A stretch of 64,000 nt of DNA, taken from positions 65,023-129,022 of the forward strand of contig JAJPHH010000202.1 of NCBI GenBank assembly GCA_021325385.1. Direction: 5' to 3'. Both the position numbers and the translations under genes were made by a program. Shown piece by piece: positions 5,288 to 53,394 of the stretch. Each line of letters starts with the position of its first letter. The first letter of the stretch is position 1. The notes beneath the pieces are model-generated. The model was not told the origin of the DNA and did no database searches. It saw only the letters and a list, made by a program, of their open reading frames with translations. The DNA comes from Alphaproteobacteria bacterium (GTDB lineage: Bacteria > Pseudomonadota > Alphaproteobacteria > Rhizobiales > Beijerinckiaceae).

Positions 5288-5312
5288 AACCGTCGAAAAA
5301 CATGAATGTTCC
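5288..5312 (-). promoter_or_regulatory. Candidate EcfG/SigT promoter for the UDP-glucuronate decarboxylase gene
   Basis: Minus strand GGAAC-N16-GGTT. Confidence 0.55.
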
Positions 5313-5349
5313 GGGCTTTCTCCGGCGGCGGACCAGCGGCGCCGGATTC

Positions 5350-5375
5350 GGAACGAATTGTGACCTCGACGTGTT
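5350..5375 (+). promoter_or_regulatory. Candidate EcfG/SigT promoter for mscS
   Basis: GGAAC-N17-TGTT, back-to-back with the divergent site at 5288-5312. Confidence 0.5.
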
Positions 5376-5443
5376 CTAAACCGGAAAAGCGCCGCCTCAA
5401 TCAGTACGAGAGGACGGCTCAAAAACGATCTCAGCGCGGGGCC

Positions 5444-6298
5444 ATGACGTTCATTCCCAACAATCTCGACGCTTTCGCTGCGATGATCTGGACCTGGGCG
5501 GCGACGTTTCTGCCGCGGCTGGCGGTGGCGATCGCGGTCCTCGTCATCGGCGTGTTCCTCGCCCAGTGGGCGGCGCGCGCCGTGGCGGCGACGTTCAGGG
5601 AGACGCACGGCGTCGACGAAACAGCGCGCCCGGTTCTCGCCGCCGCCGCGCGCTACGCCGTGCTGGTCCTCGCCATCATCGCGGCCCTGAGCCAACTCGG
5701 CGTTCAGACCGCATCGCTTCTTGCCGCGCTCGGCGCAGCAGGCCTTGCGATCGGCCTCGCTTTGCAAGGCACGCTGTCGAACGTCGCCGCCGGCGTCATG
5801 CTGCTCTGGCTCAGGCCGTTTCGCGTCGGCGACTATATCGACGCGGTCGCCGCCAACGCCATCGCCGGCACCGTCAAGGAAATCGGTCTTTTCGCCTGCC
5901 AACTCGAGACGTTCGACGGCCTCTATGTTTTCGTTCCGAATTCGACAATCTGGAGCGCGGCCCTGCGCAACCATTCGCGCAATCCCGGCCGATTGATCTG
6001 CTTCACCGTGGCTCTGCCGGCCGGGGCCGATTTCGAACGCGGCCGCGAAGCGCTTTTCGCCATGCTTCGCGCGGCCGCCCGCGAACGGCCGCCGCCGGAA
6101 GTCTTCGTCGACAATGTCAATGCTGGCGCGCCGCTCTTGACCTGCCGCTTCTGGGTCGACCAGAGCCGCGCCGGGGAAATCCAACGCCGCATTCTCGACG
6201 ATGCGAGGCTCAGCCTGATGCAGGCTTCGCCTGACCTCAAGCCGACGCAGATCACGCGCACCGTCCCGCCCGAATCCGATCCGTCGAGGCTTCTCTAA
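5444..6298 (+). CDS. mscS: Small-conductance mechanosensitive channel family protein
   Basis: LGAAGLAIGLALQGTLSNVAAG, RPFRVGDYI, VPNS motifs; ATG 5444 preferred over 5306. Confidence 0.9.
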   Translation: MTFIPNNLDAFAAMIWTWAATFLPRLAVAIAVLVIGVFLAQWAARAVAATFRETHGVDETARPVLAAAARYAVLVLAIIAALSQLGVQTASLLAALGAAGLAIGLALQGTLSNVAAGVMLLWLRPFRVGDYIDAVAANAIAGTVKEIGLFACQLETFDGLYVFVPNSTIWSAALRNHSRNPGRLICFTVALPAGADFERGREALFAMLRAAARERPPPEVFVDNVNAGAPLLTCRFWVDQSRAGEIQRRILDDARLSLMQASPDLKPTQITRTVPPESDPSRLL

Positions 6299-6319
6299 GC
6301 GCTCGGTCGGAAGCGACGT

Positions 6320-6553
6320 TCAGGCCGGCGCCTCCTCGCTCCCGCGATCGAGCGAAGCGGAGGGAGGCTGCAACCCGGCAATGAGCGACTGCAAATTTGC
6401 GACCATCAGCTCGATATTTTCGCGGCTTGCTTCGATTTCGAACACTTCGTCGGCGTCGTCGACGATGTGAATGACGAAGACGTCGCCGCTCGGCGCGGCG
6501 GCGAAGCCGACAAGCGAGCGCTTGACGCCGCCGCCGGCGGATTTCCCGTTCAT
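6320..6553 (-). CDS. Small hypothetical protein (77 aa)
   Basis: ATG 6553 preceded by GAGGGGG; globular-looking sequence; weak GGAAC-N17-AGTT upstream at 6655-6680. Confidence 0.55.
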   Translation of the reverse strand: MNGKSAGGGVKRSLVGFAAAPSGDVFVIHIVDDADEVFEIEASRENIELMVANLQSLIAGLQPPSASLDRGSEEAPA

Positions 6554-6822
6554 CTTGCTTTCCCCCTCGTGTTCGGGCGAACGGCGCGCCGCTATCGTCC
6601 TCGGCGCGCCGGTCGACATCGCGATCGGGGGCTCCTCTCGGGCGACGGGTCGACAACTGGCCTGCTCGCGCCGAAGTTCCCGGGACTGCCCACAGGCAGC
6701 CGCGCCGGCGGCGCGACGCGCTCGCCGCAAGCGCGGAAACGGACGCGAAACCGAAACCGCCAAGGCTCAGAGGATGGGCCGCCGTTCAACAAAGGCGTAC
6801 CGATAAATTTCCGCCGCTACGG

Positions 6823-6847
6823 GGAACTCGGCCGGGCGGGACACGTT
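6823..6847 (+). promoter_or_regulatory. EcfG/SigT-type promoter for the epimerase-radical SAM-GT operon
   Basis: Exact GGAAC-N16-CGTT 33 bp upstream of the start codon. Confidence 0.75.
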
Positions 6848-6879
6848 CTCAGACGGCCGGGGGGACAACAGGAGCGGCG

Positions 6880-7989
6880 GTGTCTGAACGCGTTCTCATC
6901 ACCGGCGGCGCCGGATTCATCGGCCGGCGCGTCACAGAAAATCTTTTGAGACGCGGATATCGCGTTCGCATTCTCGACAGTTTCGTCGAACAAGTGCACG
7001 GCCCTCGCCGGACCCTGCCGGACGCTCTCGCCGACGTCGAGGCGATCCCCGGCGACGTCCGCGACGAGGACGCGTTGCGAAAGGCGCTCGCCGGAATCGA
7101 TAGCGTCTTGCATCTCGCCGCCGAGGTCGGCGTCGGACAGAGCATGTACGCGATCGAGCGCTACGTTTCGGCGAACGACCTCGGCACGGCCGCGCTGCTC
7201 GAGCGCCTCGCCCATAAGCCGGTCCGCCGCGTCGTCGTCGCCTCCTCGATGAGCGTCTATGGCGAAGGCCTCTATATCGACAGGGACGGCAATCCCGTCG
7301 AGGACGCCGAACGCAGCAACGCCGTCAGCCTTTCCTGGGACCCGGTCGACGCCTCCGGCGCGCCGATGATCCCGGCTGCGACCCCGGAATGGAAACGCCC
7401 CAACCTCGCCTCCGTCTATGCGCTGACCAAATTCGTGCAAGAGCAGATGACGCTGACCGTGACGGCGGCGTACGGCATGGAAGGCGTCGCTCTCCGATTG
7501 TTCAACGTCTATGGGCCGGGCCAAGCCCTTTCGAATCCCTATACCGGGGTTCTCGCGATCTTCGCGTCGCGTCTCGCCAACGGCAAGCCGCCGCTCGTTT
7601 TCGAAGATGGCCGCCAGCGCCGCGATTTCGTCCATGTCGACGACGTCGCCGAAGCTTTCGCGCTGGCGCTCGAACATCCCAAGGCGGCCGGCAAGATCTA
7701 CAATATCGGCAGCGGGCAGGATCGCAGCGTTCTGCAAGTCGCCGAAATGCTCGCCGCGGCGATGAACAAGGCCGAGATCGCGCCGGAAGTCAGCGGCAAG
7801 GGAAGAAAGGGCGACGTACGCCATTGCTTCGCCGATACGAGCAAGGCGGAAAAGGAGCTCGGCTTCGTCGCCCGGCAGGACTTCACGCAAGGCCTGGCGG
7901 CGCTCGCCGAATGGGCGGCCGGCCAGCAAGCGCATGACCGCATCGCCGAAGCCAGAAGCGAGCTTGAAAAGCGAGGGCTTGTCGCATGA
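6880..7989 (+). CDS. NAD-dependent NDP-sugar epimerase/dehydratase
   Basis: TGGAGFIG, SSMSVYGEG, YALTK (YxxxK), RDFVHV. Confidence 0.9.
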   Translation: MSERVLITGGAGFIGRRVTENLLRRGYRVRILDSFVEQVHGPRRTLPDALADVEAIPGDVRDEDALRKALAGIDSVLHLAAEVGVGQSMYAIERYVSANDLGTAALLERLAHKPVRRVVVASSMSVYGEGLYIDRDGNPVEDAERSNAVSLSWDPVDASGAPMIPAATPEWKRPNLASVYALTKFVQEQMTLTVTAAYGMEGVALRLFNVYGPGQALSNPYTGVLAIFASRLANGKPPLVFEDGRQRRDFVHVDDVAEAFALALEHPKAAGKIYNIGSGQDRSVLQVAEMLAAAMNKAEIAPEVSGKGRKGDVRHCFADTSKAEKELGFVARQDFTQGLAALAEWAAGQQAHDRIAEARSELEKRGLVA

Positions 7990-9068
7990 ACGCGCCCGCG
8001 ATCGTCGGCTTGCGTCCGATCCTCATCACCGGCGGCGCCGGTTTCCTGGGCAGCAATCTCGCCGACCGTCTGGCGCGCGAGGGCCGGCACGTCGTCCTTT
8101 TCGATTCGCTGCGCCGGCCTGGCGCCGAACGCAACGCGCGCTGGCTGCGCGAGCGGCACCCGGAGCGGATCTCGCTGCAGCGCTCGGACATCCGCGACGA
8201 GGCGGCGGCGCGCGCCGCCGTCAACGACGCCAGCGCCGTCTTCCATTTCGCGGCGCAGGTCGCGGTCACGACCAGCCTCAGCGATCCGGCCGAGGATTTC
8301 GCCATCAATGTCGGCGGCGCCTTCGGCCTCCTGGAGGCGATCCGCAGGCAAGGCGGCGCCACGCCCTTCATTTTCGCTTCGACCAACAAGGTCTATGGCG
8401 ATCTCGCCGACATCGCGCTCGTCGAAGAGAAGGACTGCTACTTGCCGCAGGACGCCGCGATCCGCGCCAGCGGCGTTTCCGAAAAGCGTCCGCTCGATTT
8501 TCACACGCCCTATGGCTGCTCGAAAGGCGCGGCCGATCAATACGCGCTCGATTACGCCCGCAGCTTCGGTCTGCCCGTCGTCGTGATGCGCATGAGCTGC
8601 GTTTACGGACCGCGGCAGATCGGCTGCGAAGATCAAGGCTGGATCGCGCATTTCCTCATCCGCGCGTTGCGCGGCGAGCCGATCACCATTTTTGGCGACG
8701 GCAAGCAGGTGCGCGACGTTCTGTACGTCGACGACGCCGTCAACGCCTATATCGCCGCCTTGCGCAACATCCAGCGGGTGAGAGGCCGCGCTTTCAATCT
8801 CGGCGGCGGCCCGGCCAATGCGGTCAGCCTCAGAACATTGATCGCCTTCATCGAAGGCCGGCTCGGCCGCCCCGTCGACATCCATTATGACCAATGGCGG
8901 CTCGGCGATCAGCGCTACTATGTGTCGAACGCCCAAGCCGTCGAGCGCGAGCTCGGCCTGCGTCAGCCGCTGCCATGGCGCGAAGGCGTCGGCCGGCTGA
9001 TCGATTGGCTGCGCAGCGACTACTTGCCCTCGTCCGCCTCCGCTCGACATTGGGAGGCGGCGGAGTGA
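7986..9068 (+). CDS. NAD-dependent epimerase (CDP-paratose/tyvelose 2-epimerase-like)
   Basis: TGGAGFLG, AAQVAVTTS, STNKVYG, PYGCSKG, EDQGW. Confidence 0.88.
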   Translation: MNAPAIVGLRPILITGGAGFLGSNLADRLAREGRHVVLFDSLRRPGAERNARWLRERHPERISLQRSDIRDEAAARAAVNDASAVFHFAAQVAVTTSLSDPAEDFAINVGGAFGLLEAIRRQGGATPFIFASTNKVYGDLADIALVEEKDCYLPQDAAIRASGVSEKRPLDFHTPYGCSKGAADQYALDYARSFGLPVVVMRMSCVYGPRQIGCEDQGWIAHFLIRALRGEPITIFGDGKQVRDVLYVDDAVNAYIAALRNIQRVRGRAFNLGGGPANAVSLRTLIAFIEGRLGRPVDIHYDQWRLGDQRYYVSNAQAVERELGLRQPLPWREGVGRLIDWLRSDYLPSSASARHWEAAE

Positions 9069-10357
9069 GGGTTGCGCTGGTCAATCCGCCTTGGCGTTTC
9101 GACCGCAGCATCTATTTCGGCTGCCGTGAGCCGCATCTGCCGCTCGAACTCGGCGCCTGCCGCGCCCTGCTCGCCGCCGCAGGCCACGAAGCGCAGATAT
9201 TCGACGGACATCTTTGCGGCAGGGCGACGAGCGAACTTGCCGACGAGGTCGCGGCGTTCCGCCCCGCAATGACCGTCGTCACCACGGCGCCCAGCTATCT
9301 TTTCTGGCGTTGCGCGCCGCCCGAGCTCAAAGTGCCGCGCGAATTCCTGATTGCGCTTGGCGGCCGCGGCGGCCGCCGCATCGTTGTCGGGCCGCATGGA
9401 TCGGCGACGCCCGAGACGACGTTGCGCAAGCTCGACGCCGACATTGTCGTGCGCGGCGAATGCGAAGAGGTCGTCGCCTTCTTGGCCGGGGCCGCCGATT
9501 TGGCGAAAGTCCCGTCGATCGCCTTCTGGGACGGCGCCGACATTCGCGTCACGGGCGGCCCGGCCGCGGCCGCTTTCGTCGACCTTCAAGCGCTCGATTG
9601 GCCGGACGAATGGATCGCTCGCCACCATCACCATCACCACCGCTTCGAGGCCGCGCCGGATGGGCCAGGCGCCGAAGTCGAAGCCTCGCGCGGCTGTCCC
9701 TATTCCTGCTCTTTCTGCGCGAAGATCGACTATCGCGACAAATATCGCCGTCGCGCGCTGCCGCCTTTGCTCGACGAGATCGACCGGCTGATCGGGCAAG
9801 GCGCCGCCTACCTCTATTTTATCGACGAAATCTTCCTGCCGCAAAAGCCGCTGCTCGAAGCTTTGGTCGAGCGCAAGATCAAATTCGGCGTACAAACCCG
9901 CATCGATTTATGGAAACCGGACATGCTGGACCTGCTCGGCGCGGCAGGCTGCGTCTCGATCGAAGCGGGCGTCGAGAGCCTGACGATCGAGGGACGCGCG
10001 TTTCTCGACAAGAACTGCCGTCTCTCGACCGATGAACTCGCCGAGCGCCTCATCTATGCGCGCCGGCGCGTGCCTTTCGTCCAGGCCAATCTCATCAAAA
10101 TGGCCGATGACGATCCGGCGCTGATCAGGGCGTGGCGCGAGCGCTTGGCTTCGCATGACGTATGGGCCAATGATCCGGTGCCGCTCTATCCTTATCCCAG
10201 CTCGCCCGATTATCGCCGCCTATGGGGCGCGCCCGACGAGAAAGCGTGGGAGCGCGCCCATGATTACTACCTTCGTCAATTCGCGAGCTTCAGCGATATT
10301 CAGGACGAACGGCCGCTTCCATTGCCGGAACTGGAGACGTCGTGTCGCGCTTGTTGA
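9065..10357 (+). CDS. B12-binding domain / radical SAM protein (resembles the TIGR04295 rhizo-twelve family)
   Basis: GTGA overlap start (MRVALVNPPW); CxxxCxxC in RGCPYSCSFC; GEC cobalamin-domain motif; FIDEIF; internal His6. Confidence 0.88.
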   Translation: MRVALVNPPWRFDRSIYFGCREPHLPLELGACRALLAAAGHEAQIFDGHLCGRATSELADEVAAFRPAMTVVTTAPSYLFWRCAPPELKVPREFLIALGGRGGRRIVVGPHGSATPETTLRKLDADIVVRGECEEVVAFLAGAADLAKVPSIAFWDGADIRVTGGPAAAAFVDLQALDWPDEWIARHHHHHHRFEAAPDGPGAEVEASRGCPYSCSFCAKIDYRDKYRRRALPPLLDEIDRLIGQGAAYLYFIDEIFLPQKPLLEALVERKIKFGVQTRIDLWKPDMLDLLGAAGCVSIEAGVESLTIEGRAFLDKNCRLSTDELAERLIYARRRVPFVQANLIKMADDDPALIRAWRERLASHDVWANDPVPLYPYPSSPDYRRLWGAPDEKAWERAHDYYLRQFASFSDIQDERPLPLPELETSCRAC

Positions 10358-11478
10358 ACGCGTCGATCCGCCGCCTGTTGATGACCGCTGACGCGGTCGG
10401 CGGCGTGTGGATCTACGCGCTCGACCTCGCTCGCGCCCTGGCGCGCCACGGCGTCGCCGCGACGCTGGCCGTGCTCGGCCCGCCGCCTTCCGACGCGCAG
10501 CGGCGCGAAGCCGAGAATATCAAGAACCTCAAGCTGGTTCTGACAGACGCGCCGCTCGAATGGCTATGCGACGACGAAGCGAGAGTGCGCGGCGCGGCGG
10601 GTCTTCTCGCGGAGCTCGCGCGCGACGTCGGCGCGGACCTGGTCCAATTGAACGGCGCGCCTTTCGCGGCCGACGCCGACTATCCGGCGCCGGTCGTCGC
10701 GGTTCAGCATTCGTGCCTGGCGACCTGGTGGGCCGCGGTCAACGACGGCCCCGCGCCGCCGGAATGGCGCTGGCGCGCCGATCTGACCCGGCGTCATCTC
10801 GACGCGGCGGATCGCGTGGTCGCCCCGACCGCCGCTTTCGCCGACCTTGTCGCGTCGGTCTATGGCCTCGGCAAGCGGATCGACGTCGTCCATAACGGCC
10901 GCTCGCGCAGCTCGGTCGCGCCGACCGGGCGGACATTGGACGCACTCTTCACGGCCGGCAGGCTATGGGACGAAGGCAAGAATGTCGCGACGCTGGACCG
11001 CGTCGCCGCTCTGGTCGACGCGCCGTTCTTCGCCGCCGGCCCATGCGCCGGCCCGAACGGGACCCGGATCGCCAGTCGCAACCTGCAGCTTCTCGCCGAA
11101 CTCGCGAGCGACGACGTTCGCGTATGGCTGGCCAAGAGACCCATTTTCGTATCGAGCGCGCTGTACGAGCCTTTTGGCCTGACGGCGCTCGAGGCCGCGC
11201 AAGCCGGCTGCGCCCTCGTCCTTTCCGATATTCCGACTTTTCGGGAATTGTGGGATGGCGCCGCGCTGTTCGCCCCGGCGCGCGACGAGAACGCTTTCGC
11301 CTCCGCCGCGACGACCCTTCTCGAAGATCGGCTTCTGCGCCGGCGCCTGGAGCGCGCGGCGCATGAGCGCGCGCGCCGCTACAAACTCGAAGCGATGGGC
11401 CAGCGCATGGTCGCCCTCTATGACGAACTCGTCGGCAAGGGCGCTCCCGCGCCAAGCCATTCGGAGCACGCGGCGTGA
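10342..11478 (+). CDS. Glycosyltransferase family 4
   Basis: MTADAVGGVW, AGRLWDEGKN, EPFGLTALEAA. Confidence 0.88.
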   Translation: MSRLLNASIRRLLMTADAVGGVWIYALDLARALARHGVAATLAVLGPPPSDAQRREAENIKNLKLVLTDAPLEWLCDDEARVRGAAGLLAELARDVGADLVQLNGAPFAADADYPAPVVAVQHSCLATWWAAVNDGPAPPEWRWRADLTRRHLDAADRVVAPTAAFADLVASVYGLGKRIDVVHNGRSRSSVAPTGRTLDALFTAGRLWDEGKNVATLDRVAALVDAPFFAAGPCAGPNGTRIASRNLQLLAELASDDVRVWLAKRPIFVSSALYEPFGLTALEAAQAGCALVLSDIPTFRELWDGAALFAPARDENAFASAATTLLEDRLLRRRLERAAHERARRYKLEAMGQRMVALYDELVGKGAPAPSHSEHAA

Positions 11479-12584
11479 AGGTCGCTTATTTCACGCATTC
11501 CCTTGCGTCCTGCTGGAATCATGGCAACGCGCATTTCCTGCGCGGCGTCCTACGCGAGCTGATTCTTGCGGGCCATGAGGTCGCCGCCTTCGAACCGCGC
11601 GGCGCCTGGAGCTTGACGCATTTGCTCGAAGATCACGGCGAAGCAGGGCTTGCGCCCTATCGGGCCGCCTATCCCGAACTCTCTTCGATCGAATACGATC
11701 GCGATTTCGACCCCGAAGCCGCGCTCGACGGCTACGATCTCGTGATCGTCCACGAATGGAGCGAGCCGCAACTCGTCGCCGCTCTTGGCGGCTTGCGGCG
11801 GCGAGGCGCGAAATTCACCCTGCTTTTTCACGACACTCATCACCGCGCGGTCAGCGATCCTGACGCGATCCGCGCCTTCGATCTCGACTTCTATGACGGC
11901 GTGCTGGCCTTCGGCGAAGCGCTCGCCGCGGTGTACCGGCTTTGGGGCTGGGGCGACCGCGTCTTCGTCTGGCACGAAGCCGCCGACACTCGCCTGTTCA
12001 AGCCGCCGGAGGCCGAAGGGCCGCGCCATGGCCTGGTCTGGATCGGCAATTGGGGCGACGACGAGCGCTCCGCGGAACTGGAGAAGTTCCTGCTCGCGCC
12101 GGCGCAGCGCGCCGCGCTGCCGCTCGACATCTATGGCGTCCGCTATCCGGCGCACGCCCTGGCCGCGCTGCGCCGCTATGGCGCACGGCGCCATGGCTGG
12201 CTCGCCAATGCGCTGGTCCCCGCCGTCTTCGCGAAAAGCCTCGCGACAGTACATGTGCCCCGGCGCTTCTACGCCGAAAAGCTGCCCGGCATTCCGACCA
12301 TTCGGGTCTTCGAGGCCTTGGCTTGCGGCGTTCCGCTCCTCTCGGCGCCCTGGTCCGATGCGGAAGGCCTGTTCCGGCCGGGGGAAGATTATCTGGTCGC
12401 GCGCAACGGCGACGAAATGACGGCTCACATGCGCGCCGTCTCCGAAGATGGCGATCTGCGCGCCAGCCTCGTCAAGAACGGGCTCGCCGCCATTCGCGCC
12501 CGCCATAGCTGCGCCCATCGCGCCGCCGAGCTTGTGCGGATCGCCGCCCATATCAAGCAAGCCGCGGCTTTGGAGACCGCTTGA
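11475..12584 (+). CDS. CgeB/YkvP-like glycosyltransferase (DUF3880 / GT1_2 type)
   Basis: SCWNHGNAHFLRG, WIGNWGDDER, PTIRVFEALACG. Confidence 0.85.
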   Translation: MKVAYFTHSLASCWNHGNAHFLRGVLRELILAGHEVAAFEPRGAWSLTHLLEDHGEAGLAPYRAAYPELSSIEYDRDFDPEAALDGYDLVIVHEWSEPQLVAALGGLRRRGAKFTLLFHDTHHRAVSDPDAIRAFDLDFYDGVLAFGEALAAVYRLWGWGDRVFVWHEAADTRLFKPPEAEGPRHGLVWIGNWGDDERSAELEKFLLAPAQRAALPLDIYGVRYPAHALAALRRYGARRHGWLANALVPAVFAKSLATVHVPRRFYAEKLPGIPTIRVFEALACGVPLLSAPWSDAEGLFRPGEDYLVARNGDEMTAHMRAVSEDGDLRASLVKNGLAAIRARHSCAHRAAELVRIAAHIKQAAALETA

Positions 12585-13678
12585 TGGACATCGCCTTTTA
12601 TGGATCGAGCCTGCTGTCCTCTTATTGGAACGGCGCGGCGACCTATTATCGCGGCTTGCTCTTCGATCTCGCCCGGCGCGGCCACAAGATCACGTTCTAC
12701 GAGCCTGACGCGTTCGATCGTCAGCAGCATCGCGACATGGAGCCGCCGGCCTGGGCGGCGGTGGAAGTCTACCCGGCCGAAGACTCGGCGATGCGGCGCG
12801 TCGTCGCCGAGGCCGCAAACGCGGACGTCGTGGTCAAGGCGAGCGGCGTCGGAATTTTCGACGACGAGTTGCTCGACGGCGTGCTGGCGGCGTCGCGACC
12901 AGACGCGATCCGCATCTTCTGGGACGTCGACGCGCCGGCGACCCTCGCCGAAATGCGCAAAGACCCGGACCATCCGATGCGCCGCGCCCTCCCCGCTCTC
13001 GACGCGGTCCTGACCTATGGCGGCGGCCCGCCGGTCGTCGAGGCGTACCAAGGCTTCGGCGCGGCGTTCTGCACGCCGATTTACAATGCGCTCGATCCGT
13101 CGACCCATCATCCGGTCGCCGCCGATCCGCGCTTCGCCTGCGACCTCGCCTTTCTCGGCAATCGCCTGCCGGATCGCGAATCTCGAGTCGAAGAGTTTTT
13201 GCTGAGGCCGGCGACGATGCTGCCGCAGCGAAGCTTTCTCCTCGCCGGCAACGGCTGGGAGACAAAGCCGACGCCGGACAACGTCCGCACGCTCGGCCAC
13301 GTCTATACGCGCGATCACAACGCGTTCAACGCGACGCCGCGCGCCGTTCTCAATATCGCTCGCGACAGCATGGCCGAGACCGGCTACTCGCCGGCGACTC
13401 GGGTCTTCGAGGCGGCCGGCGCCGCCGCCTGCATCATCACCGACGCCTGGCGCGGCGTCGAACATTTCTTGCGGCCCGACGCTGAAATCCTCGTCGCCCG
13501 CGACGGCCGCGACGTCGCCGCGCATCTCGCCCATCTCACCGCGGAAACCGTGCGCCGAATCGGCGAAGCCGCGCGCCGGCGGATCTTGGCGGAGCATACG
13601 TACGAAAAGCGCGGCGCCGAAGTCGACGCCATCTTGCGGAGGATAGCGCAGTCGAAAGCGGAAAGGAGCGCGGCGTGA
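12581..13678 (+). CDS. CgeB/YkvP-like glycosyltransferase
   Basis: SSYWNGAATYYRG, FLGNRLPDRE, SPATRVFEAAG. Confidence 0.85.
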   Translation: MMDIAFYGSSLLSSYWNGAATYYRGLLFDLARRGHKITFYEPDAFDRQQHRDMEPPAWAAVEVYPAEDSAMRRVVAEAANADVVVKASGVGIFDDELLDGVLAASRPDAIRIFWDVDAPATLAEMRKDPDHPMRRALPALDAVLTYGGGPPVVEAYQGFGAAFCTPIYNALDPSTHHPVAADPRFACDLAFLGNRLPDRESRVEEFLLRPATMLPQRSFLLAGNGWETKPTPDNVRTLGHVYTRDHNAFNATPRAVLNIARDSMAETGYSPATRVFEAAGAAACIITDAWRGVEHFLRPDAEILVARDGRDVAAHLAHLTAETVRRIGEAARRRILAEHTYEKRGAEVDAILRRIAQSKAERSAA

Positions 13679-14862
13679 CCCGCAGGCTCCGCCTCGTCGT
13701 CATTGGCCTCGCCCTTTCCTCGTCCTGGGGCAACGGCCATGCGACGACTTATCGCGCCCTGCTCCGCGCCTTCGCCAAACGCGGTCACGAGATTACATTT
13801 CTCGAACAGGATCAGCCGTGGTACGCCGACCACCGCGACCTTGCCCGGCCCGATTTCTGCCGCCTCGTCCTCTATCGCGACGCGCTGCATTTGAAGGCTT
13901 TCCGCGACCTGATCGCCGAGGCGGACGCCGTGGTGGTCGGCTCGTACGTCGCCAACGGCGCCGCAATCGGGCGATGGGTTCAGAGCTTGCGCCGCGGCGT
14001 CACCGCGTTCTACGACATCGACACGCCGGTGACGCTGGCCAAGCTCGAGCGCGGCGACTGCGACTATCTCGCGCCCGACCTGATCCCCTTCTACGATCCC
14101 TACCTGTCGTTCAGCGGCGGTCCAGCGCTCGAGACTCTCGAACGGCGCTTCGGCGCGCCGGCCGCGAGGCCGCTCTATTGCGCCGTGGACGAGGGCTTTT
14201 ATCGGCCGCTCGCTTTGAAGCCGCGCTTCGATCTCGGCTATCTCGGCACTTACAGCGCCGATCGACAGCAGGCCTTGGAGCGATTGCTGATCGAGCCGGC
14301 GCGGCGCGCGCCGCATCTCAGCTTCGTGGTCGCCGGTCCGCAATTTCCTGACGATATCGCATGGCCCGACAACGTGACCCGCTTTCAGCATGTCGGGCCT
14401 GCCGACCATCCGGCGTTCTATGCGAGCTGCCGCTTCTCCTTGAACGTGACGCGGGCGGACATGGCGCGATTGGGTTTCAGCCCCAGCGTCCGTCTGTTCG
14501 AAGCGGCCGCCTGCGCGAGCCCGATCATCTCCGACCGCTGGCCCGGCCTCGACAGCCTGTTTCGACCGGATCGGGAGATTTTGCTCGCCGCCAGCGCCGA
14601 CGACGCGCTCGCCATCCTGCTGCACATGAGCGAGGCCGATCGACGCGCGCTGGGGAAAGCGGCGCGGCGCCGCTTGCTCGGCGCCCATCGCGCGAGCCAT
14701 CGCGCCGAAGAATTGGAACGGCATTTGCTCGAGGCGCTGAGCCGAAAGCGGCCCGGCGCGCCCGATCGCCCGTCCCTCCCCGCCCCGCTTGCGTTGAAAC
14801 CCGACGCTGCGGCCCGCGCCGCGCGCGAAGCGACGGCGCTCAGACGCCACGAACGAGCATGA
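13675..14862 (+). CDS. CgeB/YkvP-like glycosyltransferase
   Basis: SSWGNGHATTYR, YLGTYSADRQ, SPSVRLFEAAA. Confidence 0.85.
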   Translation: MTRRLRLVVIGLALSSSWGNGHATTYRALLRAFAKRGHEITFLEQDQPWYADHRDLARPDFCRLVLYRDALHLKAFRDLIAEADAVVVGSYVANGAAIGRWVQSLRRGVTAFYDIDTPVTLAKLERGDCDYLAPDLIPFYDPYLSFSGGPALETLERRFGAPAARPLYCAVDEGFYRPLALKPRFDLGYLGTYSADRQQALERLLIEPARRAPHLSFVVAGPQFPDDIAWPDNVTRFQHVGPADHPAFYASCRFSLNVTRADMARLGFSPSVRLFEAAACASPIISDRWPGLDSLFRPDREILLAASADDALAILLHMSEADRRALGKAARRRLLGAHRASHRAEELERHLLEALSRKRPGAPDRPSLPAPLALKPDAAARAAREATALRRHERA

Positions 14863-15277: not shown

Positions 15278-15302
15278 GGAACGTCGTCGGTTCTGTTCTG
15301 TT
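15278..15302 (+). promoter_or_regulatory. Candidate EcfG/SigT promoter for the APC permease
   Basis: GGAAC-N16-TGTT 55 bp upstream of ATG 15358. Confidence 0.55.
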
Positions 15303-15357: not shown

Positions 15358-17262
15358 ATGGCTTGGTTAGATGTTCTGCTCGGCGCTCGCCTCGCCAATC
15401 GCGATTATGGCCGGCGCAAAATCGGCGCCTTCGAAGGCCTGCCGGCAATGGGCCTGGACGGCCTCGGCTCTTCGGCCTATGGGCCGGAAGCCGCGCTGAC
15501 CATCCTCATTCCGCTCGGCGCAGCCGGCTCGGCCTATATCGAAGGCGTCATGGCGCCGATCGTCGCGCTGCTGATGATCCTGTTCGTCTCCTATTGGCAA
15601 ACCATTCGCGCTTATCCGAACAATGGCGGCGCTTATATCGTCACCAAGGAAAATCTCGGAACGAATGTCAGCCTGCTCGCCGCAGCCGCCTTGATGATCG
15701 ACTACGTTCTCAACGTCGCGGTCGGCATTTCGGCCGGCGTCGGCGCGCTGGTCTCGGCCGCGCCGGCGCTGCATCCTTACATCTTGCCGATCTGCCTCGG
15801 CGTTCTCGTCCTTGTCACGATCGCCAATCTGCGCGGCACGCTCGATGCGGGGCGGCTCTTCGCGGCGCCGACCTATCTCTTCGTCGTCAGCTTCGTCGCG
15901 ATTATCGCGATCGGCGTCGCCAAGGCGCTGTTGTCGGGCGGGCATCCGGCGCCGGTCGCGCCGCCGCCGGCGCCGCCGCCGGCGACGGAAAGCCTGAGCC
16001 TTTGGCTGCTGCTGCGCGCCTTCGCCAGCGGCTGCACGGCCATGACCGGCGTCGAGGCGGTAAGCAACGGCATGAGCGCCTTTCGCGAGCCGCCGGTCAA
16101 GTACGGACATCGAACCCTGGCGGCGATCGTCGGCATTCTCGCCATCCTCCTCGCCGGAATCGCCTACTTGGCCAATTCCTATCGCATTATGGCGATGGAC
16201 CAGACGCAGCCGGGCTATCGCAGCGTTTTGTCGCAACTGGTCGGCGCGGTCATCGGCGAGAACGCGTTCTTCTACGTCGCGATCGGCTCGCTGCTCTGCG
16301 TCCTCGTCCTTTCCGCGAACACCAGTTTCGTCGATTTTCCCCGGCTTTGCCGGATGGTCGCCGAGGACGGCTTCTTGCCCAAGTCCTTCGCCATAGCCGG
16401 CCGGCGGCTCGTCTTTTCGGTCGGCATTCTTTATCTCGCCGCGACCGCCGGGACGCTGCTGTTCGCCTTCGGCGGCATTACCGACCGGCTGATCCCGCTT
16501 TTCGCCATCGGCGCCTTCCTGACCTTCACCCTCTCTCAGGGGGGAATGGCGGTCCATTGGCGTCGCGCCCTGCGCCGAAGCAAATCCCGGCGCGAAGCCG
16601 GCGCCCACCACCTTCATTTCTGGATCAACGCCGTCGGCGCGAGCGCGACCGGCCTCGCCTTGGCCGTCATCATCGTCGCGAAATTTCTCGAAGGGGCCTG
16701 GATCACGATTTTGGTCATCCCCGCGGTCATCGCGCTGCTGGTCAGCATCCATCGCTACTACCGCTGGGTGGCGCGAGAGGTTTGCGATCCTGGACCGCTC
16801 GAGATCGACGCGGGTTCTTCGCCGATCATTCTGATCCCCATCGAAGATTGGGACAAATTGACCGCCAAGGCCCTGCGCCTGGCGCTCACCCTTTCGCCGG
16901 ACGTCGTCGGCGTCCATCTCACGCATCTCTCCGGCCCCGAGGCGCGGGAACGCGAGGAATCTCTGCGGGCGCGCTGGCGAGGCAGCGTCGAGCAGCCTGC
17001 CGCGGCGGCCGGAATCGCCGCGCCTCGATTGATGATCCTGCAAGCGCAATATCGCGATATTCACGAGCCCGTCCTGAAGCTCGCCGGCGAGCTGGGACAG
17101 AAATTCCCCGGCCGCAGCGTCGCCGTTCTCATTCCCGAAGTGGTGAAGCGGCATTGGTATCAATATCTGCTGCATGTCGGCTATGCCGACCATCTGCGTC
17201 GCCAGCTCTTGCGCAAAGGCGACTCGCGGCTGGCTGTCATAGACGTTCCGTGGCGGCTTTGA
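15358..17262 (+). CDS. APC-superfamily permease, YdaO/KimA-like
   Basis: GLDGLGSSAYGPEA, YPNNGGAY, AFASGCTAMTGVEAVSNG, FVDFPRL; about 12 TM segments plus a soluble C-terminal domain. Confidence 0.85.
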   Translation: MAWLDVLLGARLANRDYGRRKIGAFEGLPAMGLDGLGSSAYGPEAALTILIPLGAAGSAYIEGVMAPIVALLMILFVSYWQTIRAYPNNGGAYIVTKENLGTNVSLLAAAALMIDYVLNVAVGISAGVGALVSAAPALHPYILPICLGVLVLVTIANLRGTLDAGRLFAAPTYLFVVSFVAIIAIGVAKALLSGGHPAPVAPPPAPPPATESLSLWLLLRAFASGCTAMTGVEAVSNGMSAFREPPVKYGHRTLAAIVGILAILLAGIAYLANSYRIMAMDQTQPGYRSVLSQLVGAVIGENAFFYVAIGSLLCVLVLSANTSFVDFPRLCRMVAEDGFLPKSFAIAGRRLVFSVGILYLAATAGTLLFAFGGITDRLIPLFAIGAFLTFTLSQGGMAVHWRRALRRSKSRREAGAHHLHFWINAVGASATGLALAVIIVAKFLEGAWITILVIPAVIALLVSIHRYYRWVAREVCDPGPLEIDAGSSPIILIPIEDWDKLTAKALRLALTLSPDVVGVHLTHLSGPEAREREESLRARWRGSVEQPAAAAGIAAPRLMILQAQYRDIHEPVLKLAGELGQKFPGRSVAVLIPEVVKRHWYQYLLHVGYADHLRRQLLRKGDSRLAVIDVPWRL

Positions 17263-17293: not shown

Positions 17294-17318
17294 GGAACAG
17301 GCTGGCGCCTCTGTCGTT
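17294..17318 (+). promoter_or_regulatory. EcfG/SigT-type promoter for the CBS-PCMT unit
   Basis: Exact GGAAC-N16-CGTT. Confidence 0.75.
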
Positions 17319-17436: not shown

Positions 17437-17868
17437 ATGCATGTCAGCGAGACCATGACGCGAGACGTTCAATTGGCGAGGCCGGAGCAGACGATCCAGG
17501 ACGCGGCCCGCGCAATGGCCGGAATCGACGCCGGCGCTTTGCCCGTCGCCGACGGCGACCGGCTCATCGGCATGATCACCGATCGCGATATCGCCATCCG
17601 CGCCATCGCGGCCGGCAAAGGCCCGCAAACCAAGGTGAAAGAGGTGATGACCTCGGACGTCAAATATTGCGTCGAAGACCAGGATGTCGAAGAGGTCGCC
17701 CGTAACATGGGCGACATCCAGGTCCGCCGCCTGCCGGTCGTCAATCGCGACAAGCGCCTGGTCGGCATCCTCTCGTTGGGCGACATCGCCTTTACGGCCG
17801 ACGGCAAGGCGAGCGAGGCGCTGAGCGGCATTTCGCGGCCCGGCGGCGCCCATACCCAGACCGGCTGA
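17437..17868 (+). CDS. CBS-domain pair protein
   Basis: GMITDRDI, VRRLPVV, GILSLGDI; strong GGAGGAGGAG RBS. Confidence 0.92.
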   Translation: MHVSETMTRDVQLARPEQTIQDAARAMAGIDAGALPVADGDRLIGMITDRDIAIRAIAAGKGPQTKVKEVMTSDVKYCVEDQDVEEVARNMGDIQVRRLPVVNRDKRLVGILSLGDIAFTADGKASEALSGISRPGGAHTQTG

Positions 17869-19869: not shown

Positions 19870-19894
19870 GGAACGCGGCGACGCGAAGCCCGTT
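19870..19894 (+). promoter_or_regulatory. EcfG/SigT-type promoter for the SDR-DUF6496 unit
   Basis: Exact GGAAC-N16-CGTT. Confidence 0.75.
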
Positions 19895-20784: not shown

Positions 20785-21150
20785 ATGCCGCAACGACAAT
20801 CAAGGCCGCAAAAGGAGACCGTGCGCCGCGTCATGCACGAGTTCAAGCACGGCGAACTCCGCATCCGGGGCCGTGGCCCCAAGGTGAAAAATCCGAAGCA
20901 GGCGATCGCCATCGCGCTGCGCGAGGCGGGCGCCTCCAATCGTCAAAGCCCGAAAGAGAAGAGCCGAGTCTTGAGAAAAACCAAGGCCAAGGAAAGGCGC
21001 GGCGAGACAGCGCAAGCGGCGGCGGAGGGGACGAAAGCGAGGCGAGCCGGCAAGACCCGTTCGGAACTCTACCGGCAGGCGCAGAGGCGCGGAATTCCGG
21101 GCCGTTCCCGGATGAGCAAGAGCCAATTGGAGCGCGCGCTTCGCAGATGA
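20785..21150 (+). CDS. DUF6496-like basic protein with a Rho-N-like C-terminal motif
   Basis: VMHEFKHGEL..KVKNPKQAIAIAL-EAG; ELY--A-RRGIPGRSRMSK-QL. Confidence 0.8.
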   Translation: MPQRQSRPQKETVRRVMHEFKHGELRIRGRGPKVKNPKQAIAIALREAGASNRQSPKEKSRVLRKTKAKERRGETAQAAAEGTKARRAGKTRSELYRQAQRRGIPGRSRMSKSQLERALRR

Positions 21151-21486: not shown

Positions 21487-21590
21487 GATGGGTTTCCCTG
21501 CGAGCGAAGCCGCTCGATGAACCGAGACGCCTCCCAGCGTTTCTCTCTACGCGCCAGGCATCCCCAAGTTCCCCGGGGCTTCTGCGATCG

Positions 21591-26724: not shown

Positions 26725-26749
26725 AACGAGGGCGATCCGCCGTTGTTCC
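26725..26749 (-). promoter_or_regulatory. EcfG/SigT-type promoter for the yciF-like gene
   Basis: Exact GGAAC-N16-CGTT on the minus strand. Confidence 0.75.
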
Positions 26750-27469: not shown

Positions 27470-27495
27470 GGAACGCGCGTGTTTGAACTGGCGTT
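27470..27495 (+). promoter_or_regulatory. EcfG/SigT-type promoter for ppa
   Basis: GGAAC-N17-CGTT; it overlaps codon 27479, favouring the later start at 27536. Confidence 0.7.
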
Positions 27496-28140: not shown

Positions 28141-28165
28141 GGAACCTTCTGGCGCAGCAGGCATT
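28141..28165 (+). promoter_or_regulatory. Candidate EcfG/SigT promoter for the YdeP-like gene
   Basis: GGAAC-N16-CATT. Confidence 0.5.
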
Positions 28166-32882: not shown

Positions 32883-32907
32883 AACGTAGCAACGAAAAAC
32901 CAGTTCC
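32883..32907 (-). promoter_or_regulatory. EcfG/SigT-type promoter upstream of the GMC remnant / membrane protein
   Basis: Exact GGAAC-N16-CGTT on the minus strand. Confidence 0.72.
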
Positions 32908-46097: not shown

Positions 46098-46760
46098 TCA
46101 TGGCCGCGGCGCCGGGACGGGAGCGGGGAATTGCGCGAGAATGGCGGCGACTTCGTCGTCCGAAAGTTGGCGGAAGTCGCGATAGAAGGCGCCGATCGCG
46201 CCGAACCTTTCGTACTCCTCCAGGCAGACGATCTCGTCGGCCTCGGCGCGGAGCTCGCGCAACGCAGCGCTGGCCGCCACCGGCGCAGCCAGGACAAGTC
46301 TCGCCGGATTTTGCCGGCGCGCCGCGCGCAGCGCCGCTCGCGTCGTCGCCCCGGTGGCGACGCCGTCGTCGACGACGATGACGGTCCTGCCGCCCCAATC
46401 GATCGGCGCGCGACCGGCGAGATATTTTTGGCGGCGACGATGGATTTCGGCAAGTTCGCGATCGCGTATGGCGGCGAACTCGCCCTCGGTGACGCCGGCG
46501 ACGCCGATGACCTCCTCGTTCCGTACGGTCAGCGGCGCGGCGCCGTCGACCACTGCGCCCATCGCCAGTTCAGGCTGGTACGGAACGCCGATCTTCCGCA
46601 CCAGGATCAGATCGAGCGGCGCTTCGAGCGCGCGCGCGATTTCCGCGGCGACCGGCGCGCCGCCTCGGACCAAGGCGAGGACGACCGGATGTTCGTCCTT
46701 GTAGCCGGCCAGAGCTTTGGCGAGGCCGCGCCCGGCCTCCGCGCGATCCCGGAACGGCAT
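46098..46760 (-). CDS. Phosphoribosyltransferase domain protein
   Basis: F-DR-EAGR-LA, VRKIG-P-QPELAMGA, VVDDGVATG, IG-FY-DF-Q--DDEV. Confidence 0.9.
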   Translation of the reverse strand: MPFRDRAEAGRGLAKALAGYKDEHPVVLALVRGGAPVAAEIARALEAPLDLILVRKIGVPYQPELAMGAVVDGAAPLTVRNEEVIGVAGVTEGEFAAIRDRELAEIHRRRQKYLAGRAPIDWGGRTVIVVDDGVATGATTRAALRAARRQNPARLVLAAPVAASAALRELRAEADEIVCLEEYERFGAIGAFYRDFRQLSDDEVAAILAQFPAPVPAPRP

Positions 46761-46771: not shown

Positions 46772-47446
46772 CTAAGCCTCATGCGCCCGACGATCGATAT
46801 CGCGCCGAACATAGCTCGCAAACCATTCCGCCGCGTAGCGACCGACCGCCTCGAGCGCGCCGGGCTCGGAGAAAAGATGGCTGGCGCCGGGCACGACGCG
46901 CAAAGCTTTTGTGCATTTCAGAGCGGCTAAGGCCTGCTCGTTCAAATCCAAGACGATCCCATCGTCGCCGCCGACGATCAGCAGCGTCGGCGCGCGCACA
47001 AGCGGCGCGGCCTCGCCGGCAAGATCGGGCCGGCCGCCACGCGAGACGACGGCGGCGATGCGATCGCCGAGCCGAGCGGCGGCTTTCAGCGCCGCCGCGG
47101 CGCCGGTGCTGGCGCCAAACAGGCCGAGCGGCAATTTCGCCAATTCCGGATCGCGGCCGATCCATTCGATCGCCCAGTTGAGGCGCTCGGCCAACAGGTC
47201 GATGTTGAACACGTTGCTCCGGTCGCGCTCCTCTTCGGCTTTCAGCAGGTCGAAGAGAAGCGTGGCGAAACCGGCGCGATTGAGCCCGTCCGCCACTGCG
47301 CGATTGCGCGGGCTCAGGCGACTCGAGCCGCCGCCATGCGCGAAAACGACGAGGCCCTTCGGCTCCGCCGGCGCGGCGAGGTCGCCTGGCAGGTCGAGCG
47401 GGGCGATGCGAATCTCGCGGCTGACTATCTTCGGTTCGCGCAGCAT
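46772..47446 (-). CDS. Dienelactone-hydrolase-like alpha/beta hydrolase
   Basis: FAHGGGSSRLSPRN, FGASTGAA, SRGGRPDLA, GASHLF-EPG. Confidence 0.9.
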   Translation of the reverse strand: MLREPKIVSREIRIAPLDLPGDLAAPAEPKGLVVFAHGGGSSRLSPRNRAVADGLNRAGFATLLFDLLKAEEERDRSNVFNIDLLAERLNWAIEWIGRDPELAKLPLGLFGASTGAAAALKAAARLGDRIAAVVSRGGRPDLAGEAAPLVRAPTLLIVGGDDGIVLDLNEQALAALKCTKALRVVPGASHLFSEPGALEAVGRYAAEWFASYVRRDIDRRAHEA

Positions 47447-47557: not shown

Positions 47558-47582
47558 AACAGGCCGCGAGGCCGTCTGTTCC
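47558..47582 (-). promoter_or_regulatory. Candidate EcfG/SigT promoter for the hydrolase-PRTase unit
   Basis: Minus strand GGAAC-N16-TGTT. Confidence 0.55.
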
Positions 47583-51261: not shown

Positions 51262-51284
51262 AAAGGGTCGATAATCCGCCCGTC

Positions 51285-52007
51285 ATGAAAATCGCATCGT
51301 ACAACATTCACAAATGCCGGGGCGCCGACGGCCGGGTGCGGCCGGACCGCATCGTTTCGGTCATCGGCGAAATGTCCGCCGATCTTATCGCCCTGCAGGA
51401 GGTCGACGGCCGCTTCGGACGGCGCGGCGGCCTGCTTGATCCAGCCGCGATCCGGCGCGAGACGGGCATGCATCTTCTGGTCCAGTCGGACGCGCCCGAC
51501 CGGCATGGCTGGCATGGCAATGCGCTGTTGGTTCGCGGCGAGCCGAAATCCTATCGCCGCGCGCGGCTGAAATTGCCGGGATTCGAACCGCGCGGCGCGA
51601 TCGTCGCCGAACTCGACCTCGGCGAGGGCGAATTTCGCGTCATCGCCGCTCATTTCGGCCTGCTCCGCCGCTCACGGATGGACCAGGCCCTGGCGCTGCT
51701 CGCCGCCTTCCGCGATTTGCCGCCGATGAACACGATCCTGCTGGGCGATCTCAACGAATGGCGCCGCCGAAGGCGCTCGGCGCTCGAAATTCTCGAACCG
51801 ACCTTCGGCCCGGCGCCGACGGTCTTGAGCTTTCCCTCGCGCCGGCCGGTCTTGCCGCTCGACTGCATTTTCGGCTGGCCGACCGGCTTGATCGGCCAAA
51901 TCGCCGCCCATGACACGCCATTGGCGCGCCGGGCGTCGGATCATTTGCCGCTGACGGCGCGGGCCCATCTCGGCGCCGAGACGCCTCTTCTGCAGGAAGC
52001 GGCTTAG
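51285..52007 (+). CDS. Endonuclease/exonuclease/phosphatase family protein
   Basis: SYNIHK, ALQEVD, GDLNEW, LD-IF, ASDHLP. Confidence 0.92.
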   Translation: MKIASYNIHKCRGADGRVRPDRIVSVIGEMSADLIALQEVDGRFGRRGGLLDPAAIRRETGMHLLVQSDAPDRHGWHGNALLVRGEPKSYRRARLKLPGFEPRGAIVAELDLGEGEFRVIAAHFGLLRRSRMDQALALLAAFRDLPPMNTILLGDLNEWRRRRRSALEILEPTFGPAPTVLSFPSRRPVLPLDCIFGWPTGLIGQIAAHDTPLARRASDHLPLTARAHLGAETPLLQEAA

Positions 52008-52020
52008 CCTTCCCCGAGAC

Positions 52021-53124
52021 TTAGGAAACAATCGGCCGCCGCGGCCGCCAGCCTGGCTGCGCGGATTTGATCATCATGATCTCGGTCAGGCTCTGACGGG
52101 TGAAGAGCCCGACCAGCCGGCCGGACGGATCGACGACGCAGAGCGCGGCATCGCGGCTCGGGGCGAGCCGGTCGACGGCGGCTTCAAGCCCAGCCGTCGG
52201 ATTCACGGTCACGGCCGGCTTGAGCGCAAGGTCGGACACCGCCATTTCATTGTCGTTCCGGCCGAGGGCGGCGATGATGTCGTCGCGGACCAGGACCCCG
52301 AGCGGCCGCCCGGCGCCGTCGACGACCGGGAATTCGTCCTGGCCTGTCGCGAGCAGGATCTGAACCGCATCCGCGACCCTGGCGCCGGCGGGTATGGCGG
52401 TGAAGCGCGTCTCCATGGCGTCCTGCACGGCCAAGCCGCGCACCGCGTCTTTCAGCCCCGCCATTTGCGCTTCGCCCGCCGCCGCGACATAGACGAAGAT
52501 CGCGATGAAAATCAGCAGAGGATTGCCGAATAAGCCGAGAAAACCCAGGGCGAAAGCGAACGCTTGCCCGATCGAGGCGGCGATCTGCGTCGCCCTGGCC
52601 GCGCCGAACCGCATGGCGAGCAGCGCCCGCAACACGCGTCCCCCGTCCATCGGGAAAGCGGGGATCAAATTGAAAATGACCAATGCGAGATTGGCGGCGG
52701 CGAGCCGGGCGATCAGCGAAATATGCGGATCGTCGAGTCGCGCCGCCGCGTCCGGATCGATCCGGCCGATTATGGCGAACAGGACAATGGCGATGACGAC
52801 GTTGACCATAGGTCCGGCGATCGCCACCGCCAGCTCCTGGCTCGGCTTTTCGGGAATGCGCTCGAGGCTGGCGACGCCGCCGATCGGCAGAAGCGTGACC
52901 TCGGGCGTGTGGACGCCGTAGCGCCTCGCCGCCACGATATGTCCGAACTCGTGCAGAGTGACGCAGACAAACAAGAGAAAGACAAAGAGGATGCTGCGCC
53001 ATGCGGCCGCAGCGCCCTCTTGAAAAAGCGCGCTGAACCAAATCCAAGCCAGGAACAGCAAGAACGTCGCGTGAACCTTCACCGCCGTTCCGCCGAAGCG
53101 GCCGATCGTGACCGACCATCTCAT
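52021..53124 (-). CDS. Site-2 protease (M50) with CBS domains
   Basis: HEFGH, AGP-VN, FNLIPAFPMDGGR; C-terminal CBS pair. Confidence 0.93.
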   Translation of the reverse strand: MRWSVTIGRFGGTAVKVHATFLLFLAWIWFSALFQEGAAAAWRSILFVFLLFVCVTLHEFGHIVAARRYGVHTPEVTLLPIGGVASLERIPEKPSQELAVAIAGPMVNVVIAIVLFAIIGRIDPDAAARLDDPHISLIARLAAANLALVIFNLIPAFPMDGGRVLRALLAMRFGAARATQIAASIGQAFAFALGFLGLFGNPLLIFIAIFVYVAAAGEAQMAGLKDAVRGLAVQDAMETRFTAIPAGARVADAVQILLATGQDEFPVVDGAGRPLGVLVRDDIIAALGRNDNEMAVSDLALKPAVTVNPTAGLEAAVDRLAPSRDAALCVVDPSGRLVGLFTRQSLTEIMMIKSAQPGWRPRRPIVS

Positions 53125-53369
53125 TGTCAGCTCCTCGACGACGCGGAACGAAGGCGACGCGAAGCCTATCTTAATTGCCTCCCCGCCAAACGCCGAGTCG
53201 CCGCCGCATCGACCCCACGAGAGAGCGGCGCGGACGAGTCGTCATCATCGATGCGCCGCGCGGACGCTCTCGATTCATGTCGATCGGCCGAGCATTTGTT
53301 TCTGGCCGAACGTTGGCGTCGCGGCGGGGGAAAGCTTGGCGTGGCGCCCCGGCGCCGAACCGGTTACTC

Positions 53370-53394
53370 TGAACACGCGTCGAACCTTCGCGTT
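53370..53394 (+). promoter_or_regulatory. Candidate EcfG-like promoter for hsp20-lon
   Basis: TGAAC-N16-CGTT (one mismatch). Confidence 0.45.

Follow-up and report, generated by a model that had tools for sequence, protein, structure and literature searches.

The 64,000-nucleotide stretch of DNA analyzed here (the window; contig C208:65023-129022) comes from an alphaproteobacterium of the family Beijerinckiaceae with a genome of 5.35 Mb in 209 contigs and a GC content of 64.8%. Matches to the pattern GGAAC-N16/17-CGTT recur ahead of genes in this window and raise the question of whether they are promoters of the general stress response, read by EcfG, a sigma factor of the extracytoplasmic function (ECF) type that belongs to group ECF15, and over which distance such promoters would be clustered. 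We find that the window is very probably part of a cluster of ~46 kb (C208:52.3-98 kb) of EcfG (ECF15) general stress promoters, and that eight predicted promoters (6823+, 17294+, 19870+, 21548-, 26725-, 27470+, 28141+, and 32883-) are well supported. Transcription start sites and dependence on EcfG are what we infer from the sequence. Positions are those of the window unless a contig is given.

Enrichment of the GGAAC-N16/17-CGTT motif

We searched the window and the whole genome for GGAAC-N16/17-CGTT, in which GGAAC is the −35 element and CGTT the −10 element. The window contains six exact matches (6823+, 17294+, 19870+, 26725-, 27470+, and 32883-), precisely those reported in an earlier note on this DNA; dinucleotide-preserving shuffles of the window averaged 0.86 exact matches and gave no more than 3, and 6 were reached in none of 100 shuffles. 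In the entire genome, there are 126 exact matches, or 1.5 per 64 kb. The genome-wide scan that the earlier note had proposed as a check for enrichment gave 74 matches with an N16 spacer and 52 with an N17 spacer versus 9 to 41 (mean, ~23) for 13 control spacers (N10-15 and N18-24). Counting intergenic matches only, the numbers were 55 (N16) and 33 (N17) versus ~8 at control spacers, and at promoter-like positions they were 32 and 13, respectively, versus 3.4. The latter counts imply false-positive rates of ~11% for N16 and ~26% for N17, which are only approximate because the underlying gene calls, which are GC3-based and span 74% of the genome, are crude. We consider the spacer controls the valid ones because the reversed pattern is as common as the motif itself in relatives (97 versus 113 and 112 versus 147) and is uninformative. 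An extended position weight matrix made from the 88 intergenic exact sites was almost uninformative outside the core, except for a preference for G before CGTT, and because so little information lies beyond the core, it is of no use for ranking sites. A scan of 14.5-34 kb for sigma-70 promoters and terminators gave nothing exceeding shuffles.

In addition to the six exact sites, eight sites with one mismatch had been listed. All eight are present at the reported positions and were chosen from 32 such matches in the window; seven of them retain GGAAC and have one altered −10 base. The description of the 14 sites as intergenic, correctly oriented, and near gene starts was also borne out, in that all 14 lie in noncoding DNA with the first plausible start codon on the same strand 26 to 120 nt downstream of the −10 element, and several of these starts are preceded by a clear Shine-Dalgarno sequence. 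Among one-mismatch variants, only GGAAC-N16/17-[A/G/T]GTT and, more weakly, [A/T]GAAC are enriched in the genome. At promoter-like positions, the GGTT variant was found 12 (N16) and 10 (N17) times versus 1.25 for control spacers, the TGTT variant 8 and 5 times versus 1.4, and the AGTT variant 5 and 3 times versus 1.0. Because variants in the first −10 base are enriched, the working consensus in this genome is GGAAC-N16/17-NGTT with a degenerate first −10 base. The same degeneracy is seen in Sphingomonas melonis Fr1, for which a GGAAC-N17-20-GTT motif was derived experimentally (PMC6599016).

Regulators of the general stress response

The genome has one canonical phyR/nepR-ecfG locus, which lies on contig C193 and not on the window contig. 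NepR was identified at C193:22388-22492 (PF18557; 48.9 bits versus a cutoff of 25.7), with an ECF sigma factor immediately downstream (NCBIfam NF009199; 230.5 bits versus 219) and PhyR divergently upstream (NF006623; 356.6 bits versus 240). This is the canonical divergent arrangement, and each regulator is present in a single close copy. GGAAC-N16-AGTT is found at C193:22651-22675(-), 128 nt ahead of the NepR open reading frame (ORF), and the 15 kb around the locus hold seven exact sites. The motif before nepR-ecfG and the surrounding sites are the usual signature of self-regulation, which we predict for EcfG here as well.

In the established model, stress would cause phosphorylated PhyR to sequester the anti-sigma factor NepR; EcfG, once freed, would direct RNA polymerase to GGAAC and (C)GTT elements spaced by 16 to 17 nt. 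The promoters in the window would then jointly switch on ~20 to 25 genes. The proposed targets are a rare radical-SAM glycan operon; a CBS protein together with a protein-repair/esterase fusion; a short-chain dehydrogenase (SDR) together with a DUF6496 protein; DUF892; a spare pyrophosphatase; a molybdoenzyme together with a CYTH-CHAD protein; and small orphan proteins. That the sites are EcfG (ECF15) promoters, as the earlier note had suggested, is thus supported in silico by the regulator locus, by the spacer-specific enrichment, and by the conservation of six of the promoters elsewhere, as detailed below.

Exact sites and their conservation in relatives

The six exact sites and the genes downstream of them are as follows.

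6823..6847, plus strand: GGAAC-N16-CGTT ahead of a seven-gene glycan operon (6880-14862)
17294..17318, plus strand: exact site ahead of a CBS-pair protein (17437-17868) and a PCMT-erythromycin-esterase (PCMT-Ere) fusion (17887-19845)
19870..19894, plus strand: exact site ahead of a short-chain dehydrogenase (19921/19933-20751) and a DUF6496/Rho_N protein (20785-21150)
26725..26749, minus strand: exact site ahead of a DUF892 (YciE/YciF-like) protein (26174-26671/26707) and a 72-amino-acid (aa) ORF (25948-26166)
27470..27495, plus strand: exact N17 site ahead of a second-copy family-I inorganic pyrophosphatase (~27536/27596-28090)
32883..32907, minus strand: exact N16 site ahead of an orphan membrane protein (32106-32849; if it starts at the internal ATG, which has a gaaggag ribosome-binding site, 32106-32684)

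The genus is a divergent one in which coding DNA is 65 to 78% identical and promoters cannot be aligned. Because the flanking promoter DNA is not alignable, conservation of the motif in relatives is informative. In other genomes, the motif likewise precedes orthologues or family members of the targets for 6823+, 17294+, 19870+, and 26725- as well as for the one-mismatch sites 28141+ and 21548-. For the CBS/PCMT-Ere/SDR region, a genus-level DNA search gave few matches because the genus is only 65 to 78% identical, and concatenated-protein queries were used in its place.

The operon downstream of 6823+ encodes, according to Pfam, two NAD-epimerases/dehydratases, a B12/radical-SAM enzyme, a GT4 glycosyltransferase, and three Glyco_trans_1_2 proteins; its genes overlap, and its GTG start lies 32 nt downstream of the site and has a caggag ribosome-binding site. 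An orthologous cassette is present in 1 of 60 relatives (G056; 70% identity), where GGAAC-N16-GGTT lies 34 nt before a homologue of p102, the 102-aa protein described below, followed by the epimerase, epimerase, and radical-SAM genes. For 17294+, at least 12 alphaproteobacterial orthologues of the PCMT-Ere fusion have GGAAC-N16/17-NGTT at most 100 nt upstream, versus 1 of ~40 nonalphaproteobacterial loci, in a metagenome-assembled genome labelled Comamonadaceae. For 19870+, the motif is located directly upstream of the DUF6496 gene on the correct strand in 9 of 10 genus orthologues. At 26725-, an ATG with an aaggagg ribosome-binding site lies 53 nt downstream, and GGAAC-N16/17-NGTT is found directly upstream of DUF892 in 12 of 14 genus orthologues, with flanks that are not alignable.

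For the remaining two exact sites, 27470+ and 32883-, the evidence consists of the motif and its position only. The estimated false-positive rates for their classes are those given above, i.e., ~26% for exact N17 and ~11% for exact N16 sites. The membrane protein encoded at 32106-32849 matches no Pfam or NCBIfam family.

Three further observations concern these targets. A second, truncated DUF892 ORF at 26826-27224(+), which is divergent from the intact gene, encodes 132 aa covering HMM positions 2 to 86 of 159; it lacks a separate EcfG motif and probably represents a paralogue in decay. Within the PCMT-Ere coding region, a segment at approximately +1430 nt matches GGAAC-N17-GTT in dozens of genomes (e.g., L035:7418, L053:7436, and L086:7397), among others from Gammaproteobacteria, Gemmatimonadota, and Myxococcota; because protein conservation alone produces this match, it is a false positive able to mislead motif scans. 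Finally, in the genus relative G008 (C16:318057-321296), the PCMT-Ere fusion adjoins a pair of genes for a dienelactone-hydrolase-like (DLH) protein and a phosphoribosyltransferase (PRTase) that is 27 kb away from the fusion in the window; this adjacency supports a functional link between them, and no EcfG motif was found at the G008 locus.

Sites with one mismatch

Seven of the eight one-mismatch sites are listed here, and the eighth, 53370+, is treated in the following section. Class counts are those at promoter-like positions versus control spacers.

28141..28165, plus strand: GGAAC-N16-CATT ahead of a molybdopterin oxidoreductase (28194-30467) and probably a CYTH-CHAD protein (30552-32087)
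21548..21572, minus strand: GGAAC-N16-CGTA ahead of the 102-aa protein p102 (21178-21486), which has no assigned family
5288..5312, minus strand: candidate GGAAC-N16-GGTT ahead of an NAD-epimerase/dehydratase (4121-5215); class, 12 versus 1.25
5350..5375, plus strand: candidate GGAAC-N17-TGTT ahead of an MscS-type mechanosensitive channel (5444-6298); class, 5 versus 1.4
6655..6680, minus strand: candidate GGAAC-N17-AGTT ahead of an orphan 77-aa ORF (6320-6553); class, 3 versus 1.0
15278..15302, plus strand: candidate GGAAC-N16-TGTT ahead of an amino-acid-permease-family transporter (15358-17262); class, 8 versus 1.4
47558..47582, minus strand: weak candidate GGAAC-N16-TGTT ahead of the DLH protein (46772-47446) and the PRTase (46098-46760)

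Conservation sets the first two apart. The motif is present upstream of the molybdopterin oxidoreductase in five of six orthologues, and in the four close ones (71 to 72% identity) it is an exact GGAAC-N16-CGTT. The 102-aa protein (MSETTTDHDKIRKWAEAKGGKPA...) matches no Pfam or NCBIfam family, and GGAAC-N16/17-NGTT is found at most 100 nt upstream on the right strand in at least 14 of 25 members of its family, which come from many families of the order. At least 20 of the order's genera have homologues of this protein (including L177:5793 onward and L183-L207). Judged by these upstream sites, the unnamed 102-aa family appears to belong to the EcfG regulon and to be a widespread part of it.

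The other five sites (5288-, 5350+, 6655-, 15278+, and 47558-) are plausible candidates for EcfG promoters. For the 77-aa ORF downstream of 6655-, a search of 300 genomes of the order found no homologue. Upstream of three DLH orthologues (L149, L150, and L152; G045, G041, and G005), we noted the palindrome GATTGACGCCGGTCAA, which is probably a transcription factor site and is absent at the window copy.

The promoter of the Hsp20-Lon operon

The eighth one-mismatch site has its mismatch in the −35 element.

53370..53394, plus strand: TGAAC-N16-CGTT near-match ahead of Hsp20 (53423-53836) and Lon protease (53829-56234)

Pfam identifies both proteins, and their genes, which overlap by 8 nt, are probably a single heat shock operon. 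The earlier note had counted 53370+ among the EcfG sites, an assignment that fared poorly in the comparison with relatives: in 20 genus orthologues of Hsp20, the aligned position reads GATGAAC-N17-CTATTGA, resembling the sigma-32 (RpoH) promoters of Alphaproteobacteria, and both GGAAC and CGTT are absent from it. The groES and dnaK promoters of the same genome read CTTGA-N16/17-CTTATnT, and the window promoter reads TCTGAA-N17-CGTTATTT, an imperfect sigma-32 match. Moreover, Hsp20 and Lon are a classical heat shock pair, and the TGAAC class is enriched merely ~2-fold. We therefore lean toward a sigma-32 heat shock promoter at this one site, which resembles the EcfG consensus because the sigma-32 (xTGAA...CTTAT) and EcfG (GGAAC...CGTT) consensuses overlap. 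However, unlike the sigma-32 consensus, the −10 element in the window (CGTTATTT) also fits EcfG, having changed to CGTT, a perfect EcfG −10. Recognition by both sigma factors, or a switch from RpoH to EcfG, is possible.

Clustering and extent of the predicted stress promoters

Exact sites are not scattered evenly over the genome. The 88 intergenic exact sites form 28 pairs within 5 kb versus 9.5 ± 3.3 expected and 44 versus 16 within 10 kb, and with random intergenic placement, none of 3,000 simulations reached the observed pair numbers at 5 kb or 10 kb. Three clusters stand out, i.e., 8 sites in 27 kb on C85, 7 sites in 15 kb at the regulator locus on C193, and 6 sites in 27 kb in the window on C208, which is the third densest of the three. 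For the relaxed motif GGAAC-N16/17-NGTT, 14 of 250 matches in the genome fall within C208:52-98 kb, with 2.1 expected. The cluster reaches 12.7 kb leftward beyond the start of the window, where the following predicted promoters are found.

C208:52321: exact site predicted to drive a nucleotidyltransferase/phosphoesterase/aldolase/HAD operon, with LigD next
C208:58365: GGTT variant predicted to drive Ku
C208:60014: exact site predicted to drive an eight-gene operon to C208:68298 (window −5009 to 3276)

The eight-gene operon begins with genes for an inositol-3-phosphate synthase, a histidine phosphatase, a glycosyltransferase (GT), a sugar-phosphate nucleotidyltransferase, and a GH-like protein, and its tail at window 1-3276(+) encodes a PIG-L deacetylase, a GT1 protein, and a FemAB-like acyltransferase. 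This gene set recalls inositol-glycoside (mycothiol-like) pathways, whose presence in an alphaproteobacterium would be unusual. The genes behind the sites are a cargo typical of the general stress response; genes for Ku, LigD, PRC-barrel, DUF883, DUF1328, PfpI, and DUF892 proteins are found in the other two clusters and in the left flank. The C85 cluster (C85:3830-30580), the densest in the genome with its eight exact sites, lies ahead of genes for PoxB-like, PRC-barrel, Kef-type, aldehyde-oxidase small-subunit, PfpI/DJ-1, DUF4142-like, and Ku proteins.

The earlier note had placed most of 5-33 kb and parts of 46-56 kb in one coregulated stress island. This holds for ~0-33 kb with the exception of the cyo-type quinol-oxidase operon (21.6-25.6 kb), in which there is no EcfG site. 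The 46-56-kb part is weak because the motif at 47558- is absent from the DLH and PRTase orthologues, and essentially all of 33-64 kb, including a low-GC insert at 35.4-38.9 kb, lies outside the listed EcfG units.

We also considered whether the cluster is a horizontally acquired island and rejected this possibility: its GC content is 65.2% versus 64.8% for the genome, there is no tRNA in the window, and there are no mobility genes, with no integrase or transposase among the Pfam matches of window proteins. Low GC content is restricted to the unrelated insert at 35.4-38.9 kb (51.8%). This restriction-modification-like insert has GGAAC-N17-TGTT inside a gene at 37822-37847(+), most likely a chance match. 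Conservation of the cluster as a syntenic unit was likewise rejected, in that the genes for DUF892, the molybdopterin oxidoreductase, and MscS lie hundreds of kilobases apart in G022 and on separate contigs elsewhere, and the near-complete assembly of the relative G044 has no cluster of comparable density. Rather than a special island, the window cluster is one among three of its kind in this genome.

Alternative explanations

It is improbable that the sites are read by another ECF sigma factor of similar specificity (GGAAC...GTT), such as the one encoded on C104, a paralogue of EcfG, or a factor of the ECF12/SigH-like kind. GAAC-type −35 and CGT-type −10 elements are used by many ECF groups, and the genome encodes, in addition to EcfG, a distant EcfG-like ECF sigma factor on C104 (36% identical) and, in the window at 34468-35328, an ECF with a C-terminal extension. 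Nevertheless, it is the phyR/nepR-ecfG locus that is ringed by dense exact sites, including the motif upstream of nepR-ecfG; the motif upstream of PCMT-Ere is essentially limited to Alphaproteobacteria, as is EcfG; and the cargo agrees with published EcfG regulons. That chance accounts for most of these matches in a GC-rich genome, with the island an artifact of picking intergenic matches, is very unlikely: the one-mismatch class is at background overall, the eight listed sites were selected out of 32, and protein conservation produces matches within PCMT-Ere in many phyla, but six exact sites were reached in no shuffle, enrichment is restricted to N16 and N17, all six exact sites are noncoding and correctly oriented, six promoters are conserved before orthologues despite unalignable flanks, and no simulation matched the close-pair count, so that this explanation is largely refuted by the spacer controls and the conservation in relatives.

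Several observations weigh against assigning the sites to EcfG, either as a set or one by one. The C104 sigma factor could share or split the promoter set. As a whole, the one-mismatch class is not enriched genome-wide (993 [N16] and 779 [N17] matches versus 824 at control spacers), and the false-positive rates for exact sites inherit the crudeness of the gene calls. Among the homologues found, the motif was not conserved for 27470+, 32883-, 5350+, 47558-, and 53370+. In particular, it is absent from both homologues of the second-copy pyrophosphatase, which is itself rare (G017 and G214); none of four homologues of the membrane protein downstream of 32883- has a right-strand site directly upstream, the nearest being ~700 nt upstream in G251; and the motif was found in none of four MscS orthologues (56 to 59% identity) for 5350+ and upstream of none of five DLH and none of five PRTase orthologues for 47558-. 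For 15278+, two permease orthologues have GGAAC and lack a correctly spaced −10 element.

Comparison with known EcfG systems

The predicted promoters share with known EcfG regulons (ECF15; SigT, RpoE2, and RpoE4; PhyR-NepR partner switching) the GGAAC and (C)GTT elements and the 16- to 17-nt spacer. Named examples are those of S. melonis Fr1 (PMC6599016), Sinorhizobium meliloti (RpoE2), Caulobacter (SigT), and Bradyrhizobium (EcfG). This genome also agrees with them in its three regulators and in how the regulator genes are arranged, and the shared kinds of targets are DUF892, CBS, Ku/LigD, and PRC-barrel proteins, small orphan proteins, and glycosyltransferases. There is no difference in mechanism; the cargo, however, is partly lineage-specific and rare among relatives, comprising the radical-SAM glycan cassette (1 of 60 relatives), the second pyrophosphatase, and orphan genes. 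Within the genome, the cluster around the canonical phyR/nepR-ecfG locus likewise has dense EcfG promoters before small stress genes; unlike it, the window cluster has no general stress regulator gene, lies on a separate contig, is longer, and is enzyme-rich.

Implications

In its regulation, the window is an ordinary example of a known system and reveals no new regulatory principle. Some residual novelty lies in the rare glycan cassettes under predicted EcfG control and in the unnamed 102-aa family. For motif scans in general, these analyses advise caution, since most one-mismatch matches amount to background and, among the sites listed, one promoter probably belongs to sigma-32.

For the organism, ~20 to 25 poorly annotated genes of an uncultured-type alphaproteobacterium gain a shared and testable context, i.e., induction in the general stress response. 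Several of the predicted targets, namely, the PCMT-erythromycin-esterase fusion, the YdeP-like molybdoenzyme, DUF6496, and the unnamed 102-aa family, are conserved well outside this genome. We tentatively suggest that the general stress regulon of this lineage may have grown by placing accessory operons, rare ones, behind EcfG promoters in a single chromosomal neighborhood that is not syntenic in relatives, for which the clearest cases would be the two adjacent glycan cassettes, one with inositol-phosphate synthase, PIG-L, GT, and FemAB-like genes and the other with B12-radical-SAM, epimerase, and multiple GT genes. If so, the cells would make a previously undescribed inositol-containing or modified glycan upon stress, and the EcfG regulon would have in the 102-aa "TTDHDxIRxW" protein a core member that is widespread and unnamed.

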